Shown here: positions 48,394 to 59,735 of the stretch, piece by piece
How positions within the stretch are numbered: position 1 is the stretch's first letter
Layout of the letters: the number at the start of each line of letters is the position of its first letter
NCBI GenBank assembly: GCA_050633305.1
Contig: JBOEGF010000007.1
Span: 286,428 to 350,427 of the forward strand
Reading direction: 5' to 3'
DNA length: 64,000 nt
Source: Nannocystales bacterium
GTDB lineage: Bacteria; Myxococcota_A; Polyangia; Nannocystales; Nannocystaceae
The notes under the pieces: model-generated
What the model saw: only the letters and a program-made list of their open reading frames with translations
Told to the model about the DNA's origin: nothing
The model's database searches: none
Program-made: the position numbers and the translations under genes

Positions 48394-48954
48394 CTAGAAG
48401 TAGTAACGAGCCTTGATCGAGATGTCCCCGTGCGCCGCGCTGAAGCAAGCGCTCCGGCCACCGCAGGGCCCGTAGATCATGTACGGGGACCAAGTCCCCT
48501 CGAGCACCGTGTCGATGGGCACCTCTTTCCAGTGGAACGCCAGCCCGACCGGAGGCTTCACGATGAGTCCCGCTTGGTTGTTGTCGAACCCGATTGCGAC
48601 GCCCAAGCCGAAGTACGGCATGAAGTCGAAGGTGCTGTTCGAGACGAAGACGCCGGGTGTCCAAAGGTAGTCGACCCCGACGCCGCCATCGCCGTAGTGC
48701 AGCGGGAGCCAAGCGACATGGAACTGCAGCGCATGGGCGGGATGGAAGAAGTGTTTGACCGACAACCCCATCGGGTCGCCCAGGCTCAGACCCACACCGG
48801 TGTTGCCACCGCGGCTCGCGATGCGGTTGCCCGGGGACGGGGCGGCCTGGGCTTCGGAGGCCTCGCCGGCAAAAGCGGCCAAGCCTGCTACGGCTGCAAC
48901 AAACAGGGAGGCGGTCGTGGTCTTGGCTCGGCGTCTCATCACGTTGTGGGGCAT
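48394..48954 (-). CDS. Small outer-membrane beta-barrel protein (DUF3996-like)
   Basis: Signal peptide, GVGLSLGDPMGLSVK, alternating strands, C-terminal ARYYF. Start uncertain. Confidence 0.65.
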   Translation of the reverse strand: MPHNVMRRRAKTTTASLFVAAVAGLAAFAGEASEAQAAPSPGNRIASRGGNTGVGLSLGDPMGLSVKHFFHPAHALQFHVAWLPLHYGDGGVGVDYLWTPGVFVSNSTFDFMPYFGLGVAIGFDNNQAGLIVKPPVGLAFHWKEVPIDTVLEGTWSPYMIYGPCGGRSACFSAAHGDISIKARYYF

Positions 48955-51945: not shown

Positions 51946-52136
51946 CGATCCGATCGTAGCCTCCACCCCCTCGACGCGCCAAAGCACTGCGAGATTTCAA
52001 AGGTCGGCACAACACCCTGTTGCAAACGCACAGCGGCGGCCCTGCGGGCCGTTTTGAAGGGTTTTACCGGGTCGTCCGAGGGGTCCGCGCGGAACTTTAC
52101 ATCGCCGCCCGGCCGTGCAACCTTCTGCTCGGATCC

Positions 52137-52907
52137 ATGCGGTCATTGCGAGTCCTTCGTTTTCTTGTCCTCAATGGCCTGGCTGTGGGCCTCGGTGCCG
52201 TGGTTGCGACCTCGTGCATTGACGTCAACTACCCAACAGTTGCGTTCCGCTGTAATCCGCGTCAGTCGGATAACTGCCCTGACACGCACTTCTGTTGCTC
52301 GGACGACCCTGCAGCAGTGGGTGGCGGTCTGCCGTTCTACACGAACATCCCGGGTACGGCGGATGGCACGACGGCCTACTTCTCGGGCGCCAACAACGGC
52401 TTGGGCACCAAAGGCATGTGCGTCCGGACCGGCGATCTTCCGTCCGGCGCGGGTCTGTTCGAGGCGACTGCGGCGAACTGCCCGGTTCCGTGTAACCCCA
52501 CGTGGGAGGACAGCGACAAGCTGGCGGTCTGCGGCGAGGGACGCGTTTGCTGCCAGACCGTCGAGCTCGAAGCAGAGGACTGCGTCCAGGACGAAGACGG
52601 GACCTGGCGCCCGGCGGTGGGCACCGACATCCGCGGCGGGCGCACGGACTGGAAGCCCGCTCGGCACGAGACGCACCAAGACCCCAACGGTCAGGGCTGC
52701 GGGACGTTTGCCAACGGCGTGACCGACTTCGAGGACCCGGACTCCGACTTCTCGCAGTGCCTCGACCAGCTCACGGTTGCTGACCAGCGCGGCTTCTGCA
52801 TGGCGCTGCAGCCCACTGAGGTCTGTCCGACCGACGTCGAGGGCTACTTGAACGCGTGCGAGCTCATCAACTTGGGCCAGCTCGCGCCGCCCGTCGCCGG
52901 CGTTTAG
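52137..52907 (+). CDS. Cysteine-rich lipoprotein
   Basis: Signal MRSLRVLRFLVLNGLAVGLGAVVATS-C followed by 16 further Cys; clear coding-type codon bias. Confidence 0.75.
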   Translation: MRSLRVLRFLVLNGLAVGLGAVVATSCIDVNYPTVAFRCNPRQSDNCPDTHFCCSDDPAAVGGGLPFYTNIPGTADGTTAYFSGANNGLGTKGMCVRTGDLPSGAGLFEATAANCPVPCNPTWEDSDKLAVCGEGRVCCQTVELEAEDCVQDEDGTWRPAVGTDIRGGRTDWKPARHETHQDPNGQGCGTFANGVTDFEDPDSDFSQCLDQLTVADQRGFCMALQPTEVCPTDVEGYLNACELINLGQLAPPVAGV

Positions 52908-53194
52908 TCCGGCAGTTCGGCTGCGCCAAGGACGCTGCGGTAGGCGACAAACGCGCCTTCCCGCGGCGTTTCTCGTTCGGCAGCCCTCACCCGGCCCTTC
53001 GCTTCGGGTGAGGGAAAGTCGGCGGAAAACCTCCATATCTCGGACTGACCGGGCTCCGTTGCCCTCTGTCCTGTGTTTTGTCGTCGGAATAGCGCCAATT
53101 GCGCGTTGGCGTTGCCCGACAAACCGCATACATTCGCGTCCCACCGGCCCCCGAAAAGGCGGCCTTTGCGCTCCCCGCGCTCGAAGTACACCCG

Positions 53195-56095
53195 ATGGCC
53201 ACTGCCAAGAAGAGCCCCTCCGCGTCCAAATCCTCCAAGAAGGCGGGCGCGAAGAAGAAGGTGACCAAGAAGAAGGTCGCCAAGAAGAAGGTGACCAAGA
53301 AGAAGGTCACCAAGAAGAAGGCCGCGAAGAAGGCCAGCGCAAAGAAGGTGGCGAAGAAGAAGGTCGCGAAGAAGACCGCTGCGAAGAAGACCAGCGCGAA
53401 GAAGGTCACCAAGAAGAAGGCGACCAAGAAGAAGGCCAAAGTCGGCGGCAACGCTTCGGGCCGTCAGCTGGTGATCGTCGAGTCTCCTGCCAAGGCCAAG
53501 ACGATCAACAAGTACCTCGGTGACGACTTCGTCGTTCACGCCTCGGTCGGCCACATTCGCGACCTGCCTGCCAAAGCGCCCAAAGGCGTGAAGATGCCGG
53601 TGCCCGGCGTCGACCTCGACAACAACTTCTCGCCCACCTACGAGGTGCTGCCCGGCAAGGCCAAGACGGTCAACGAGCTCAAGCGCCTCGCCAAGGACGC
53701 CAGCGAAATCTGGTTTGCGACTGACCTTGACCGTGAGGGAGAGGCCATCGCATGGCACCTCGCTCAAGAACTTGGCGTCGAGCCTCTCGATGCCAAGCGT
53801 GTGGTGTTCAACGCGATCACCAAGACCGAGGTTCAGCGTGCGTTCGCCGAGCCGAACGCGATCGACGTGGCCAAGGTCAACGCGCAGCAAGCCCGTCGAA
53901 TCCTCGACCGCATCGTCGGCTATCAGGCATCGCCGCTGCTGTGGAAGAAGGTCGCACGGGGACTCTCCGCCGGTCGGGTGCAGTCGGTCGCGGTTCGCAT
54001 CATCGTGGAGCGGGAGCGCGAGATCGAGGCGTTCGTGCCCGACGAATACTGGAAGGTCACCGCTCACTTGGCGCTCGACCCCGGCAAGGCACCGAAGCTC
54101 GCCGAGAGCTGGACTGAACTGCTCGCGCAGCGCGACGAGAAAAACAAACCGCCCACGCTCAAGGCTCGCAACGCGTGGCTGGCCGAGCATCAGGGACTCA
54201 AGACCGAGCTGGTCTCGATCGACGGCAAGAAGTTCGACGTCAGCTGCAAGGCCGAGTCCCCGAAGGACCTCTCCAAGCAGATTGCGGCTGTCGCCGAGGC
54301 GGTGGGCCTCACCGACGTGACGGTCGAGAACACGCCCGACCCGGACGGTAAGGGACCTGCGCAGGTGAAACGCGCCGTGAACGGCACGCTGGACCCCAAG
54401 GCCCGCTACGCGATCAAGTCGATCGACACCCGGCGCACGACGTCGCGCCCACCAGGCCCGTTCATCACGTCGAGTCTGCAGATCGCTGCGGCCAACCAGC
54501 TCGGCTTCACCGCCCAGCGAACCATGCGGGCCGCGCAGCAGCTGTATGAAGGTATCGAGGTCCCCGGCGACGAAGGCCAGGTCGGTCTCATCACCTACAT
54601 GCGTACCGACTCCACCAACCTGTCGCCCGAGGCCGTCGCCGAGGCGCGTACGTTCGTGTCCGAGTTTGGCGCCGAGTACCTGCCCGAGAAGCCCAACACC
54701 TGGTCGTCCTCCAACAAGGACGCGCAAGAGGCTCACGAGGCGATTCGCCCGACCGCCGCTTCGAGGCGTCCCGCCGATCTCGAAGAGTCGCTGACCCCCG
54801 ACCAGTTCAGGCTCTACGATCTGATCTGGCGACGGTTTGTGGCTGGTCAGATGGTGCCCGCCAAGTGGGACGCCACCGCCGTGTTGTACGAGCGCTCCGA
54901 CACCAAGTCCGGTGCGACGCTCAAGGCGACCGGGCGCGTGCTTGCGTTCGATGGCTTCTACAAGGTCGCCGGTGTCCCGACAGCCAGCGACGAGCAGACG
55001 TTGCCCGAGCTTGCCGAGGGCGACGAGGCAGCCCCGTTCGCCATCAACCCGGACCAGAAGTTCACCTCGCCGCCGCCTCGCTACTCGGAGGCCTCGCTGG
55101 TCAAAACGCTCGAAGCCGAGGGCATCGGTCGTCCGTCGACCTACGCGTCGATCATCAGCGTCATCCAAGGCCGCCGCTACGTCGAGCAGCTCGACCGTCG
55201 GTTCTACGCAACCGACCTTGGCGAGGTCGTCACCGACAAGCTCGTCGAGGCGTTCCCGAGCCTGATGTCGATCGGCTACACGCGCTCGATGGAGGACGAA
55301 CTCGATCGCATCGAGGACGACGAAGGCGATTGGCAGGAGATGCTCACCCGCTTCCACGGCCCGTTCACCGAGGCCCTCGAAGTCGCGCACGAGAGCATGA
55401 CGCACGCCAAGGCTGAGACGCAGCCGGCGCTGTACAAGTGCCCCAAGTGCGGGTCCCAGACCCTGTACCGCTTCGGGCGAAACGGGCGCTTCTTGTCGTG
55501 TTCGACGTACCCCGACTGCGACTACTCGGCCCCGATCGACCGGGCAGGCCGGCCGCTGCTTCCCGAGCGTGTCGACGTGGCCGTGCCCGAGGACGGCTCA
55601 CAGATGGAGCTCCGCAACGGTCGTTTCGGCCCGTTCCTGGCGTCGATCAACTACCCGGAGACCAACTTCGTCCTCAACCTCGACAAGAAGGGCGGCGTCA
55701 AATACCCGTCCATTCCGCCGATCGAGACCGAGCTCGAGTGCACCAAGTGTGATGCCCCGATGAACCTGCGTCGGGGTAAGCGAGGTCCGTGGCTCGGCTG
55801 TTCACGGTTCCCCAAATGTCGGGGCCGAATGGGCTGGAACACGCTCGAGGACGAGATCAAGGACTCGCTGGAGAAGCAGCTGGAGAAGCACGAGAAGGCC
55901 AACCCGCTGCCGAAGATTAAGCGCTTCAGCAACGGTGAGGAGATCCCCGAGGGGCATCCTGTGGCCGAGCTCGTGGTGCCCGGTGGCGTTGCCGAACTCG
56001 AAGTGCATCCGGATGTGAAGGCCGACGCGGACGTCGGCATCAAAGCCGCGAAGAGGCCCCTGCCGCCTCGGCCCGAGCCCACCGCCACGGCCTAG
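53195..56095 (+). CDS. topA: DNA topoisomerase I (type IA) with N-terminal Lys/Ala-rich extension
   Basis: LVIVESPAKAKTI, ATDLDREGEAI, SAGRVQS, ITYMRTDS, QEAHEAIRP, GIGRPSTY, C-terminal Zn ribbons (CPKC, CTKC). Confidence 0.96.
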   Translation: MATAKKSPSASKSSKKAGAKKKVTKKKVAKKKVTKKKVTKKKAAKKASAKKVAKKKVAKKTAAKKTSAKKVTKKKATKKKAKVGGNASGRQLVIVESPAKAKTINKYLGDDFVVHASVGHIRDLPAKAPKGVKMPVPGVDLDNNFSPTYEVLPGKAKTVNELKRLAKDASEIWFATDLDREGEAIAWHLAQELGVEPLDAKRVVFNAITKTEVQRAFAEPNAIDVAKVNAQQARRILDRIVGYQASPLLWKKVARGLSAGRVQSVAVRIIVEREREIEAFVPDEYWKVTAHLALDPGKAPKLAESWTELLAQRDEKNKPPTLKARNAWLAEHQGLKTELVSIDGKKFDVSCKAESPKDLSKQIAAVAEAVGLTDVTVENTPDPDGKGPAQVKRAVNGTLDPKARYAIKSIDTRRTTSRPPGPFITSSLQIAAANQLGFTAQRTMRAAQQLYEGIEVPGDEGQVGLITYMRTDSTNLSPEAVAEARTFVSEFGAEYLPEKPNTWSSSNKDAQEAHEAIRPTAASRRPADLEESLTPDQFRLYDLIWRRFVAGQMVPAKWDATAVLYERSDTKSGATLKATGRVLAFDGFYKVAGVPTASDEQTLPELAEGDEAAPFAINPDQKFTSPPPRYSEASLVKTLEAEGIGRPSTYASIISVIQGRRYVEQLDRRFYATDLGEVVTDKLVEAFPSLMSIGYTRSMEDELDRIEDDEGDWQEMLTRFHGPFTEALEVAHESMTHAKAETQPALYKCPKCGSQTLYRFGRNGRFLSCSTYPDCDYSAPIDRAGRPLLPERVDVAVPEDGSQMELRNGRFGPFLASINYPETNFVLNLDKKGGVKYPSIPPIETELECTKCDAPMNLRRGKRGPWLGCSRFPKCRGRMGWNTLEDEIKDSLEKQLEKHEKANPLPKIKRFSNGEEIPEGHPVAELVVPGGVAELEVHPDVKADADVGIKAAKRPLPPRPEPTATA
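53230..53440 (+). repeat. 15-bp degenerate tandem repeat encoding KKKVT/KKKVA/KKTAA pentapeptides
   Basis: Repeated AAGAAGAAGGT(G/C)(A/G)CC-type units at the 5' end of topA. Confidence 0.9.
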
Positions 56096-56115
56096 CGGTC
56101 TCCATTGCACCACAA

Positions 56116-56157
56116 CAAGAAGGGCGGGCCGGCACATGCCGGGCTCGCCCTTTCTTG
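56116..56157. terminator. Probable bidirectional terminator between topA and the convergent cytochrome operon
   Basis: CAAGAAGGGCGGGCCGGCA-ca-TGCCGGGCTCGCCCTTTCTTG. Confidence 0.75.
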
Positions 56158-56173
56158 CGTCGGGGGCGGGAGT

Positions 56174-57070
56174 CTAGCCTGGAGGCGTGAACGAGGCGCC
56201 ATCGGGGACGCCTTGCTCAAACCATGCCTCGAACAGCGCAAAGTCGGCGGCACTCATGATGCCGCCCTCTTCCGTCTCGCACACCGCGGTCGGCATCGTG
56301 GCTTGAGTGATCACCCGATCCTGAACCGAGACCCACGCTGCCATTCCCGCGTAGGTCGAGTTGGCACCCGCGTAGTCGCTGGTGAAGTTCTCGAGTGTCT
56401 GGAGCTGAGTCCCGCCGCTGTAGGGGAAATACAGCGAGGTGTTGGATACCGAGTCGGTGTAGTGGCAGCCGCAGTTCTCTTCGAGCGCGGTCCCGATCGA
56501 GGACGGGATGACACCGGCGCCATCGCCAGATACGACGGGGCTTTCGGCATCCGGGTCGACGACAGAGAGGGCGCAGGAGATGATTCCGCCGCCGCCTTCG
56601 GTGGTCTCGCCCTCGGTCGTTTCACCGTCGGTCGTTTCACCATCCGTCGTGGTCGCGGGGCCCGTTTCCGACGGGAACTCGACGCCTGCAACCCAGCCGA
56701 CGATGACCGCGAGGTCTTCGGGGGCCAGAACGCCGGGCGGCAAAGGCATGATGCTGCCCGCAGAGGCGTCGGTGAGCCGGCTGACCAAGTAGCTGCCCGC
56801 CGGGTCACCAAAGGTGACGTAGGGGCCGCCGGGTCCGCTCTGTTCGACCCAAGCTCCAGCGGAAGCCTCCGAGAGGTCGACCAAAGAGGCGTTGTTCACG
56901 TGGCATGCGCCTCCGGGAATCGCACAGCTCGCCGTGAGTCGTTCTTGCACGGGCGTTGGCACACCGCCGCCCCCGGTCTCATTACCCTCGTCGATCTTCT
57001 TGACCTGGTCGCAGCCCGTGAGCGCGAACGCGCCTGCCGCCAACAACATCAGTGTGATGGTGCGTTTCAT
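56174..57070 (-). CDS. Lipoprotein with two atypical c-type cytochrome-like domains
   Basis: GGAGG upstream; lipobox LTGC; SCAIPGGACH...GDPAGSYL...IMP...IVGWV and NCGCH...TMP...FEAWFEQG. Overlaps the upstream gene by 4 nt. Confidence 0.7.
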   Translation of the reverse strand: MKRTITLMLLAAGAFALTGCDQVKKIDEGNETGGGGVPTPVQERLTASCAIPGGACHVNNASLVDLSEASAGAWVEQSGPGGPYVTFGDPAGSYLVSRLTDASAGSIMPLPPGVLAPEDLAVIVGWVAGVEFPSETGPATTTDGETTDGETTEGETTEGGGGIISCALSVVDPDAESPVVSGDGAGVIPSSIGTALEENCGCHYTDSVSNTSLYFPYSGGTQLQTLENFTSDYAGANSTYAGMAAWVSVQDRVITQATMPTAVCETEEGGIMSAADFALFEAWFEQGVPDGASFTPPG

Positions 57071-58794
57071 TTCGATGCCTCCTCGCTCGCTCCGCTCTTC
57101 TTGGCTTGGCGCTCCTTCTTCCACCGCGCCGCGTTCTTCCCGAGGGTGAACTGTCGGACGAGGTTGAAGCCCAAGTAGAAGTTGAACTCGTTGAAGGGGT
57201 TGCCCTCTTTGACCCCGTCGTCGGTCGTGAAGGGGTTGCCCGACTGCCCGCCCGGTGCGGCGAGGTTGGGGTGGATCTCCCGGTTGTTGGTGAAGAACAG
57301 CTGGAAGAAGTGTTTTCCGGTGTAGTAGCCGGCACCCAGGCCCCACGACCCGATCTTCGTGCCGTCGACATCGGCGTCGCCACCTCGGTAGTAGAAGAGG
57401 CTGGGATTGGCCACGTCAGGCACGGGCAGGAAATACTCCGCGTCGACGGACCATCTCTTGCGCTTGCCCAGCCACACTTGGGAGGCGAGGCCCGCAACGA
57501 GCGTGCCCCGGGTGTCCTCGACCGGTACGGCGCCCTCACCATCATCGAAGTCGATGAGGACGCGTGAGTTCTTGTTGGTTCCGGTGTGATAGCTGAGCAC
57601 GAACTGGGTAGACCAGCGCTCGAACCAGAGCCGGCTGAGCAGCAACATGAAGTTGCCGGAGATCGCGTTCTCGACGTCGAAGTCGCGAAGCAGGTCCATC
57701 GACACGTAGCCACCGAGCGAGACCGGCATGTCGTCTTCTTGCCGGAGACCGATGTACTTGGCGCTGAGCTCCCACGCCTTGCGCGAGTTGGTCCGGGACA
57801 AGCCGACGTCCAGGCCGTCGACGATGCCGTAGCCGATGCCCATGTTCATGACGACGCCCGCATCCATGCCGAACGCTCCACGCTCGGTGCCAATGCGGCC
57901 GAAGCGGTGGTCGATCCGGTACTGGAAGGTCTTCTTGCCCAACGACGTCGTGGTGGGGAGCACGATGTGCTTGTCCCCGTGGAAGGGCTTGTACTTCTTC
58001 TTGGGTGCAGCGATCGGAGCGTCGGTGCCTTCTGCTGGAGGCGTGCCCGCATCGGCGCTTGGCATGTCCGAGATCCAGTCGCTGAGGACCTTGAGCGCTT
58101 CAGGCGGGAGCGGATCGTCGCCCAGCGGCATGAGGTCGTCCTTCATCGCGTGTGTCCCGAGGACCTTGTCCATCAGGTAGCTGCCCTCCGGGTCACCCGG
58201 CGCGATGAGGAGCTTGTCGGACTCGTTGGCCTTGATGCCGATCAGGATCGACAGGTCACCCTCGAGGGGGAACTCGCTGGGGTCGCTGAGGTCTCCGCCT
58301 TCGGCGTGGCAACCCGTACAGTACTCGTCAAAGACGGCGGCGGCCTTGGCCTCGAGGGCAGGGTCGCTCTTTGCGGGAACGGCCGCAGGTGGAGGTGCCG
58401 CTCTCGACGCTTCCACATCCTCGGCCGGGATGCTTGCGATCCAGTCGCGCAGAACCTTGAGATTCGCGGCAGACAGAGGGTCGTCGCCCAGCGGCATCAG
58501 ATCCTCCTTCATCGCGGGCGTACTGAGGACCTTGTCCATCAAGTAGCTGCCCTCAGGGTCCCCAGGGGCGATGAGGAGCTTGTCGGATTCGTTGGCCTTG
58601 AGTCCGACGAGCATCCCGAGGTCACCCTCGAGGGGGAACTCGCTGGGGTCGCTGAGATCTCCGCCCTCCGCGTGACAGGCGGTGCAGTACTCGTCGAAGA
58701 TTTCGGCCGCCTTGGCCTGCAGAGCCGGGTCCCCGACGGGAGCGCTGGCCAGGGCGAGCGTGAACAAAACAGAAACCATGAGTAGCGCGAGCAT
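57067..58794 (-). CDS. Di-heme c-type cytochrome fused to DUF5777-like outer-membrane beta-barrel
   Basis: Signal peptide; two domains CTACH and CTGCH, each with PGDPEGSYL...LMP...DWI; barrel with IDHRFG, TGKHFFQLFFTN, YLGFNLVRQF. Confidence 0.8.
   Translation of the reverse strand: MLALLMVSVLFTLALASAPVGDPALQAKAAEIFDEYCTACHAEGGDLSDPSEFPLEGDLGMLVGLKANESDKLLIAPGDPEGSYLMDKVLSTPAMKEDLMPLGDDPLSAANLKVLRDWIASIPAEDVEASRAAPPPAAVPAKSDPALEAKAAAVFDEYCTGCHAEGGDLSDPSEFPLEGDLSILIGIKANESDKLLIAPGDPEGSYLMDKVLGTHAMKDDLMPLGDDPLPPEALKVLSDWISDMPSADAGTPPAEGTDAPIAAPKKKYKPFHGDKHIVLPTTTSLGKKTFQYRIDHRFGRIGTERGAFGMDAGVVMNMGIGYGIVDGLDVGLSRTNSRKAWELSAKYIGLRQEDDMPVSLGGYVSMDLLRDFDVENAISGNFMLLLSRLWFERWSTQFVLSYHTGTNKNSRVLIDFDDGEGAVPVEDTRGTLVAGLASQVWLGKRKRWSVDAEYFLPVPDVANPSLFYYRGGDADVDGTKIGSWGLGAGYYTGKHFFQLFFTNNREIHPNLAAPGGQSGNPFTTDDGVKEGNPFNEFNFYLGFNLVRQFTLGKNAARWKKERQAKKSGASEEASK
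58060..58731 (-). repeat. Internal tandem duplication of a 102-aa cytochrome domain (58426-58731 and 58060-58365)
   Basis: Manual alignment gives 83 of 102 residues identical. Confidence 0.9.
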
Positions 58795-58901: not shown

Positions 58902-59735
58902 ATGCTCGAACGCAGTGCGCGCCGCGCCTCGTTGGTGGTCATGTCTCTCGCTTCGACGCTCGTGTTCACCGCGTGCGGGGGCGACGAGGCGAAGCCGAAA
59001 GCGACAGGGGCCTCCAAGGCCTCGGAGCCCAAGGCGCCGGATGCCGAGGCCAAGGAACCGACCAAAGCCGACCCGAAGACCGACGCCAAAGAGGAGCCTG
59101 CCGTGAAGCCCGCAGGCGAAGAAGGAAAGTCCGATGACGCGGGGGCCGAGGGGGCAGCGCCTCCGGCTGAGGTCGGGGACGAAGCCGGTGCTGAGGCGGC
59201 GGATGCCGAGAGCGGTCCCGATGACGCGGAGGCTGGCGGGGAGCCGGCGGCGGAGGGAGGCGCTGCACCAACCGCAGAAGGCGGAGATGCGCCCGCGGCC
59301 GAGGGCGGCGACGAGGTCGAGGCTGCGGACGCCGCGAAAGCGGGGGGCAAAGACTCGGCCGCTCTGATCAAAGAGGCTCGGACCACCAAGACCACCGACG
59401 AGCGAGCGGTCGAGGCGTTGGCCGAAGCCGAGACGGCAGGCGCGACGATCAAGGAACTCGCCCGAGCCGCAAAGGCACGCGGCGACTACCTCTACAAGTC
59501 CCCCGACCGAGCCAAGGTCTTCTACGAATGGTCCGCAGAGAAGGACGAAAACTACGCTGACCCGGTGTTCGCCCTGGCCAAGCAGAAGGCCGTGACCGGC
59601 GACGTGGATGACGTCGTCAAGCTGCTCAAGCAGGTCTCAGAGCGCAAGGGCGGCAAAAAACTGCTCGAGCAGATCGACTTCGATCCGACCTGGGACATCG
59701 TCAAAGACGATCCTGACGTCCGAGCACTGTTGTAA
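58902..59735 (+). CDS. Lipoprotein with acidic low-complexity linker and TPR-like C-terminal domain
   Basis: Lipobox FTAC; Ala/Glu/Gly/Pro-rich linker; helical C-terminus ending DPTWDIVKDDPDVRALL. Confidence 0.7.
   Translation: MLERSARRASLVVMSLASTLVFTACGGDEAKPKATGASKASEPKAPDAEAKEPTKADPKTDAKEEPAVKPAGEEGKSDDAGAEGAAPPAEVGDEAGAEAADAESGPDDAEAGGEPAAEGGAAPTAEGGDAPAAEGGDEVEAADAAKAGGKDSAALIKEARTTKTTDERAVEALAEAETAGATIKELARAAKARGDYLYKSPDRAKVFYEWSAEKDENYADPVFALAKQKAVTGDVDDVVKLLKQVSERKGGKKLLEQIDFDPTWDIVKDDPDVRALL

Follow-up and report, generated by a model that had tools for sequence, protein, structure and literature searches.

In the outer-membrane electron transfer systems known so far (MtrAB, Cyc2), electrons run through the pore of a beta-barrel. 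Cyc2 is one polypeptide in which a signal peptide and an N-terminal c-type cytochrome, predicted to be periplasmic, precede a C-terminal outer-membrane barrel of 16 strands (OprO/OprP-like), and in MtrAB a decahaem cytochrome is inserted in the 26-stranded barrel MtrB (PMC8406198). We describe here a two-gene operon within a 64,000-nucleotide stretch of DNA (the window) from a Nannocystales bacterium (GenBank assembly GCA_050633305.1, contig JBOEGF010000007.1, positions 286,428 to 350,427). Gene A encodes a secreted polypeptide with two cytochrome c domains fused to a barrel of family DUF5777, and gene B encodes a lipoprotein with cytochrome c-like domains. By architecture the operon is of the cytochrome-plus-barrel kind and a member of DUF5777; the feature is real and conserved, and appears in no paper of the literature searched. 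DUF5777 barrels are widespread and are linked to cytochromes through fusion and gene order, yet the positions they conserve most are on the lipid-facing side. What is new is the fused form, which is core to its family, and two lipid-facing histidines, His296 and His495, as a testable pointer to function. At a probability of about 0.4, our preferred reading is that the conserved patch around these histidines binds a redox cofactor (either a metal or haem b, the latter in a single barrel or shared by a dimer) that the c-type domains feed or drain, and that it acts on a lipid-soluble species. If the patch does bind haem or a metal, there would be a bacterial redox enzyme at work inside the bilayer of the outer membrane, a compartment usually taken to lack one. 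The features, in window coordinates, are:

57067..58794, minus strand: gene A (P0001), 575 amino acids; signal peptide, two cytochrome c domains, DUF5777 outer-membrane barrel and basic C-terminal helix
58426..58734, minus strand: cytochrome domain 1 of A (residues 21-123), PSCyt1/FoxE-type, with CTACH at 58686-58672 and predicted distal Met100
58060..58368, minus strand: cytochrome domain 2 of A (residues 143-245), a tandem copy of domain 1, with CTGCH at 58320-58306 and predicted distal Met222
57145..57987, minus strand: DUF5777 barrel (residues 270-550), with a predicted luminal N-terminal segment (270-288) and 12 strands (289-550)
57907..57909, minus strand: His296, strand 1, lipid-facing register, present in 125 of 125 distant barrels
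57310..57312, minus strand: His495, periplasmic start of strand 11, lipid-facing register, present in 122 of 125 (3 gaps)
57154..57156, minus strand: Arg547, strand 12, lipid-facing register, present in 121 of 125
56174..57070, minus strand: gene B (P0002), 298 amino acids; lipoprotein (Cys20) with two cytochrome c-like domains and an acidic Thr/Gly-rich linker between them
56675..56962, minus strand: domain 1 of B (residues 37-132), with C49-X6-C56-H57 and Met108; FoxE is its best structural match
56177..56581, minus strand: domain 2 of B (residues 164-298), with the contracted motif C200-X-C202-H203 at 56473-56462 and Met259
~56115..56160, both strands: G+C-rich hairpin with U-containing tails on both strands, a probable bidirectional terminator shared with the convergent topA

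Residues 271-549 of A match DUF5777 (PF19089) over model positions 1-247 of 247 (E 3.8e-40, 138 bits against a cut-off of 23.1), and two stretches upstream of the barrel match PSCyt1 (PF07635; E 1.9e-7, 32 bits against a cut-off of 22). In an AlphaFold2 model of A built from 113 sequences, two helical domains sit on linkers of low confidence, and residues 289-550 form a 12-stranded barrel (mean predicted local distance difference test score (pLDDT) 82, predicted template modelling score 0.69). The barrel strands are amphipathic, with a clean in/out alternation. An earlier note on this DNA, made from the sequence alone, had described a secreted polypeptide with two CxxCH domains, each followed by a distal Met-Pro, and a C-terminal DUF5777-like membrane barrel. 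That description of A holds. The note had also called DUF5777 a family of no established function, in agreement with the literature searched (which did not extend to subscription papers and supplementary tables), where neither DUF5777 nor PF19089 is named in any paper; that literature likewise gave no paper on Nannocystaceae outer-membrane cytochromes in extracellular electron transfer, and on lipid-facing histidines with haem in outer-membrane barrels it gave only protein-design reviews.

Conservation on the barrel was assessed by querying 1.84 billion representative sequences with the barrel, which gave 326 matches; the best 150 of these comprised 125 full-length barrels, 34 with an N-terminal CXnCH domain, and the counts below refer to the 125. 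The six most conserved of the 59 lipid-facing positions are H296 (125), F543 (122), H495 (122), R547 (121), F497 (121) and F298 (117), and all six lie on the adjacent strands 11, 12 and 1. They are followed by Y322 (113), R334 (112), a proline at position 400 (104) and R388 (94). The polar residues of the patch stand in otherwise lipophilic registers: on strand 1, positions 290, 292 and 294 are 100% lipophilic before the histidine at 296; on strand 11, the histidine at 495 is followed by lipophilic residues at 497, 499 and 501; on strand 12, the arginine at 547 is set among lipophilic residues at 539, 541, 543, 545 and 549. Apart from H296, H495, R547, R334 and R388, the remaining 54 lipid-facing positions are on average 89% lipophilic. 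In a set of 30 divergent barrels (12 from the family, 18 others), H296, R297, G309, H495, F497, G542, F543 and R547 are invariant.

Mean-field covariation, which is noisy here (214 rows, effective number 170), gave clear registers for most strand pairs, is compatible with a shear of 12-16 and favoured a sum of 841 for strands 12-1. The top-scoring register pair places H296 and H495 both opposite L545, with their alpha-carbons ~9.5 Å apart in an ideal barrel, and the spacing is predicted, as a rough estimate for such a barrel, to be ~10-16 Å. From its position along the strands, the patch is predicted to lie in the periplasmic half of the bilayer, beside the point where the fused cytochrome enters strand 1. 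This clustering of a conserved, lipid-facing histidine pair suggests a cofactor site for haem b or a metal within the membrane, served by periplasmic cytochromes.

The link between barrel and cytochromes was examined in the family Nannocystaceae and beyond it. DUF5777 was found in 34 of 35 other Nannocystaceae genomes, in 2 of 24 other genomes of the class and in none of 14 controls; a sample of 401 genomes from the whole phylum had it in 19. Thirty distinct family loci were taken from 39 non-self family matches, with 8 duplicate loci and 2 non-family loci set aside. The barrel is fused to a CxxCH domain in all 30 (one motif in 20, one of which is cut by a contig end, and two in 10), and a B-type lipoprotein with CXnCH motifs follows it in 29; the exception ends 179 bases from a contig end. 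The co-occurrence of A and B supposed in the earlier note is thus upheld. The first motif of the 29 partners is CX4CH in 21, CX5CH in 5, CXCH in 2 and CxxCH in 1. By eye, topA and/or a gene for a low-molecular-weight (LMW) phosphatase lies nearby in 13 of the 18 larger family loci, and because this neighbourhood is kept we take the locus to be a vertically inherited core locus. Three genomes (G001, G004 and G032) have 2-3 barrel copies each. A second copy of the operon in G004 (L023:5389-9373, on contig C34) has a partner reduced to one domain (142 amino acids), together with a divergent 487-residue membrane protein that has two CxxCH motifs.

The link between barrel and cytochromes is kept in several phyla. 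Elsewhere in the phylum, other families have an unfused barrel (fused in 0 of 13 aligned), and an open reading frame (ORF) with a haem motif lies within 1.5 kb at 7 of 14 loci. At three loci of other families (L057, L058 and L059) the unfused barrel is flanked by a three-motif lipoprotein, and L058 and L059 also have a divergent two-motif protein. In a FastTree tree of 126 barrels (midpoint root), the fused or unfused state changes 11 times, against a mean of 31 for shuffled states, so fusion is clustered and was gained or lost more than once. Among the search representatives with a fused haem motif, one stands for a sequence cluster that includes a member named Candidatus Aminicenantes. Plasmid matches to DUF5777 were all Bacteroidota genes (five of five), and each of the five adjoins YceI and a small CxxCH or CX4CH protein with a Met-Pro. 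Some unusual DUF5777 fusions were also seen: of P0200 and P0302, one joins the barrel to a SurA-like peptidyl-prolyl isomerase and a cytochrome domain (this may be a gene-calling merge), and the other has a choice-of-anchor V domain with CTECH.

YceI is the usual partner of the bis-His cytochrome b561, and since the Bacteroidota barrels adjoin YceI, DUF5777 may be, by analogy, an outer-membrane functional counterpart of b561. The described pairs (BcnA-LcoA, YceI-YceJ) protect against membrane lipid peroxidation (PMC9113575). They resemble the Bacteroidota DUF5777 genes in the adjoining YceI, and b561 has bis-His haems within the membrane, as we propose for H296/H495. They differ in that LcoA is a helical inner-membrane protein, whereas here the protein is an outer-membrane beta-barrel with c-type partners, and yceI is unlinked in this genome.

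Under the preferred reading, A and B would form a small redox unit at the inner face of the outer membrane. Haem c would be attached by the Ccm system at both CxxCH motifs and probably also at CX6CH and CXCH, with methionine as the sixth ligand. The cytochrome domains would be periplasmic, one set tethered at strand 1 and the other lipid-anchored. H296 and H495 would be the ligands of a haem b, in the same barrel or in two neighbouring ones, or of a metal ion, R547 would hold a propionate or a head group, and F298, F497 and F543 would pack around the cofactor. Electrons would move singly between the c haems and the patch, which would react with a lipid-soluble outer-membrane species; candidates are quinones, lipid peroxyl species and lipids undergoing modification. 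The electrons are likely to go to something inside the outer membrane and not by a wire to the outside. A narrower form of this reading, which we regard as rather doubtful, makes DUF5777 barrels outer-membrane 'cytochromes b': H296/H495, in a single barrel or where two barrels meet, would hold a bis-His haem on the lipid-facing wall, and periplasmic c-type domains with expanded and contracted motifs would be its electron partners. If true, it would amount to an unrecognised redox route inside the outer-membrane bilayer, common to Bacteroidota, Myxococcota and Aminicenantes. The fused form is a one-gene construct, and the two named histidines make the idea directly testable.

Several points weigh against the preferred reading. 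No cofactor was observed, and no substrate or physiological partner was identified. Side-chain direction was derived from in/out alternation and not from coordinates. The register of strands 11-12 is ambiguous (scores of 11.2, 10.2 and 10.0 for sums of 1040, 1044 and 1042), and other register pairs put the alpha-carbons of H296 and H495 11.5, 16 or 21 Å apart; the better-scoring registers span 9.5-16 Å. A bulky Leu or Ile lies between the two histidines and would be awkward for a haem held edge-on in one barrel. Outward polar residues are not unique to the patch, given R334 and R388. Conserved residues in the lumen and loops (R297, G309, D311, K346, E453 and N503 among the 125 barrels) fit a solute channel. 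In the other families of the phylum, the filter used found no haem-motif ORF within 1.5 kb at 7 of the 14 loci. Finally, the two YceI genes of this genome are on contigs C10 and C14, unlinked to the operon on C7, and in the family loci, which were read by eye with no profile search made, we noticed no YceI next to the barrel.

The same patch could instead be a haem-free catalytic or docking site, either acting on lipids as OMPLA, PagL and LpxR do or serving as an intramembrane interface for an oligomer or for a larger outer-membrane machine, with the cytochromes supplying electrons or sensing redox state. We consider this unlikely and rank it below the preferred reading. The fold matches of the model include LpxR (Z 15.6) and OMPLA (Z 11.6); 12-stranded outer-membrane enzymes with active sites on the outer wall of the barrel exist, and His-His-Arg sets are typical of lipid phosphatases. 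For domain 2 of B, a comparison of features pointed weakly to PF06934, a family of fatty-acid cis/trans isomerases (score 0.90, 124 features in common); this is a lead only. These fold matches are generic and near-tied, however, and a hydrolase would need no cytochrome partners in several phyla. Serine hydrolases of the OMPLA/PagL type have His-x-Ser on one strand. Here the residues at i+2 of the two histidines are F298 and F497; with no conserved serine at either position, a triad of this type was rejected.

The interior of the barrel gives a different set of comparisons. The closest folds to the model of A were KdgM (Z 17.8, root-mean-square deviation (rmsd) 2.2, 167 aligned), FapF (17.1), COG4313 (Pput2725; 16.8) and NanC (16.0), followed by LpxR and by autotransporters (14-16), with OMPLA lower; Foldseek agreed. 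Note that these matches share strand number and overall fold with the A barrel while lying near-tied at Z 15.6-17.8 among unrelated 12-stranded barrels with 6-14% identity to it, and that the barrel had no PDB match by sequence. To our knowledge, none of KdgM, NanC, COG4313, FapF and LpxR is fused to a cytochrome. COG4313 and FapF hold an N-terminal segment in the lumen, and the alignments to both reach into residues 270-288 of A. Covariation pairs T282 and P270 with S387 (near the periplasmic end), H276 with A437 and I277 with G485. Because of these pairs and of the alignment ranges, segment 270-288 probably fills the lumen, entering from the periplasm, and in the model long loops are predicted to fill it as well. 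The linker between cytochrome and barrel is of low confidence in the model and varies in length and sequence among relatives.

On another reading, convergent with Cyc2, a small dissolved reductant or oxidant, either a metal ion or an organic compound, would pass the lumen and exchange one electron with a cytochrome capping the periplasmic mouth, B acting as a relay. The nearest folds, KdgM, COG4313 and NanC, are small-solute channels, and the luminal and loop residues are conserved. The order of signal, mono-haem cytochrome and barrel occurs in 97 of 120 relatives, and FoxE, to which the cytochrome domain is similar, is a putative Fe(II) oxidase. This reading leaves the conservation peak on the lipid side unexplained. 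Residues 270-288 appear to occupy the lumen the solute would pass, the variable linker is unlike a fitted plug, and the gene is core (34 of 35 genomes) and not patchy as a lithotrophy gene would be; Nannocystaceae are presumably aerobic heterotrophs. We hold it doubtful, below the haem-free patch.

Membership of Cyc2 itself was rejected. The motif AXPXFAR[Q/K][T/Y] upstream of CXXCH is stated to be unique to Cyc2 in PMC8406198, and neither it nor a loose P-x-FAR occurs in any of 120 A-type proteins; the barrel has 12 strands against 16. A differs further in its PSCyt1/FoxE-type domain with a distal Met-Pro, its one or two haems, its dedicated lipoprotein partner and its conserved lipid-facing histidine pair. 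In practice, the A fusion may be confused with Cyc2, and its presence should not be taken as a marker of iron oxidation.

Systems of the MtrAB, PioAB and MtoAB type share with the operon an outer-membrane barrel co-encoded with c-type cytochromes, and an MtrAB-like conduit of up to four haems spanning the outer membrane, for extracellular electron transfer, could be built if B or the fused domains were threaded through the barrel or displayed at the surface. Speaking for this are the barrel and up to four haem-type motifs in one operon, the alignment of residues ~274-288 with the through-barrel linker region of autotransporters, which leaves room for surface display, and the 92% completeness of a genome in which no MtrB/PioB was found. 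It is the least probable of the readings considered. The barrel is apparently plugged and has 12 strands against the 26 of MtrB; the haem domains are separate mono-haem globules of ~100 residues on flexible linkers with no stacked chain; their number varies within the family (1-2 on A, 1-3 on B); and the covariation of 270 and 282 with S387 fits a plug entering from the periplasm. Membership of MtrAB was rejected: PF11854 (MtrB/PioB) has no match in A or in the genome, and there is no decahaem, B having two motifs and its counterparts 1-3. The four-haem conduit across the membrane proposed in the earlier note is therefore not supported, the strands numbering 12 against 16 or 26, the lumen being apparently filled, the second haem domain of A being dispensable and the conserved chemistry lying on the lipid-facing wall.

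The haem domains of A begin after a hydrophobic signal peptide. CTACH at residue 37 is followed by Met-Pro at 100, and CTGCH at 159 by Met-Pro at 222. A distal Met-Pro lies 45-75 residues past the CxxCH in 133 of 135 CxxCH domains of A relatives, which also keep the cytochrome c helix pattern. FoxE of Rhodobacter ferrooxidans SW2 (PDB 5MAB), a His/Met di-haem protein (PMC10654088), was the sole PDB sequence match to the A profile at E≤0.001 (E 1.9e-5) and also matches domain 1 of B. His/Met ligation, as proposed in the earlier note, is therefore probable from sequence. FoxE differs in being a soluble periplasmic protein of foxEYZ with no barrel and with canonical CxxCH, where the motifs of B are CX6CH and CXCH. 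Fold searches with the A model were dominated by the barrel and thus did not probe its cytochrome domains, and NCBIfam had no model above cut-off for A or B.

The two cytochrome domains of A are identical at 83 of 103 amino acids (81%) and 248 of 309 nucleotides; in other di-haem relatives the repeats are 43-78% identical. Among 120 sequence-search matches to A, one CxxCH is present in 97, two in 19 and none in 4 (apparently partial). Given the identity of the repeats and the single CxxCH of most relatives, the second haem domain is, on this sequence comparison, a dispensable tandem duplication. A search for shorter A homologues gave 13 matches of 72-315 amino acids, mostly partial, with no clear stand-alone barrel close to A.

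Gene B has a lipobox cysteine, Cys20, and no CxxCH. Its candidate haem sites are C49-X6-C56-H57 with M108-P109 and C200-X-C202-H203 with M259-P260, each Met-Pro lying ~50-55 residues after its motif. C49, C56, H57, P109, C200, C202, H203 and P260 are invariant in 47 aligned B relatives, down to 24% identity, and M108 and M259 are at least 90% conserved in the same set. The extra cysteines Cys166 and Cys264 of domain 2 are invariant in close relatives and could form a disulfide. The model of B shows two independent helical domains (pLDDT 80). For domain 1 the best structural match was FoxE (Z 6.4, rmsd 2.7, 81 aligned), and PF07635 reached 17.4 bits, below the cut-off of 22; domain 2 had no PF07635 match, and its structural match, the cytochrome c domain of the peroxidase YhjA, was weak (Z 4.5). 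A PDB sequence search with the B alignment gave nothing meaningful (best E 0.12), and Foldseek with the B model gave no match at E≤0.001, with weak cytochrome c551 rows only. The modelled fold and the invariant Cys, Cys, His and Met-Pro point to both domains being cytochrome c-like despite the motif spacing. Thus the lipoprotein with two cytochrome-like domains of the earlier note stands as regards the lipobox and the invariant residues, with the qualification that neither domain has CxxCH. Likewise, of the up to four haems counted there, two are supported by the CxxCH motifs of A, and the other two rest on the non-canonical CX6CH and CXCH of B. Three co-folding runs of A(145-555) with B(20-298) and four haems scored 0.37, 0.24 and 0.30 (median 0.30 against a mark of 0.32) and gave no contacts; they were weighed neither way.

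For haem attachment, the genome has CcmE and three PF01578 (CcmF/CcmC-type) matches and no ResB match, and is therefore taken to use System I. CcmE and two of the PF01578 matches lie at C7:275519-282682, on the same contig, a short way upstream of the window and ~60 kb from the operon. Longer spacers are tolerated in cytochrome c maturation, and a functional CKCH site is described in an anammox protein (review PMC7096707); CX3CH, CX4CH and longer variants are listed in a second review (PMC11492766). Genome-wide, 26 ORFs have a PSCyt1/FoxE-like domain, with spacers of 1 (8 domains), 2 (14), 3 (1), 4 (5) and 6 (1) residues and four stretches free of a motif. Short spacing (CXCH, in eight domains of this family) is thus a recurring feature of this genome, and gene B is a naturally occurring case in which to test whether a Ccm system attaches haem to CXCH and CX6CH. 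In many of the 26 ORFs the domain is C-terminal on a larger secreted protein. Among the 26 are the ORFs at C29:17287-18438, a three-motif lipoprotein 58% identical to domain 1 of B; C63:59285-62163, with three such domains in tandem; C72:13473-14858; C72:21532-23034; and C8:209087-210460.

In a further reading, the barrel is an importer or exporter of haem or of a metal, and the cytochrome-like domains, above all the one with CXCH, serve as storage or chaperone modules and not as electron carriers. CXCH is rare as a haem motif and could bind metal, two histidines of the barrel are invariant, and among the Bacteroidota copies (L043:867-8751, L045:1-8013) one lies beside hemA and a truncated haemoglobin, in a tandemly duplicated module, and another beside ccsA and a secreted Rieske protein. 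The histidines are in the lipid-facing register, however, there is no TonB-type plug domain, and the distal Met-Pro and cytochrome c helix pattern are kept in nearly all CxxCH domains of A relatives, as counted above, and in both domains of B. We judge this reading improbable, above the MtrAB-like conduit.

The operon lies in a genome of 11.0 Mb, 66% G+C and 92% completeness. The ATG of B overlaps the TGA of A by 4 nucleotides (57067-57070), as the earlier note had it, and A may in fact begin at Met6 (58779), where several relatives have their start. The terminator which that note had placed at the end of the unit is also recovered: the stretch 56096-56176, between B and the convergent topA, folds as a long hairpin on both strands (z -4.6 and -4.1; none of 200 shuffles was equally stable) and is probably a bidirectional terminator. 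A scan for promoter and terminator consensus sequences found no promoter-like site and also missed this hairpin.

Among the neighbouring genes, topA (53099-56095, plus strand) encodes a DNA topoisomerase I extended at its N terminus by a long repeat that is rich in Lys and Ala and resembles histone H1 (HC2 match below cut-off); the same extension occurs in relatives. Upstream of topA there is a conserved cysteine-rich lipoprotein (52110-52907, plus strand; no Pfam match). On the other side of the operon, an acidic lipoprotein with a C-terminal TPR-like domain (58902-59735, plus strand) is divergent from gene A, may share its upstream region and is kept in position in many family loci; the gene for an LMW phosphotyrosine phosphatase comes after it. 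Further away, 48394-48954 (minus strand; no Pfam match) encodes a small secreted protein with an aromatic last residue, probably a small beta-barrel.

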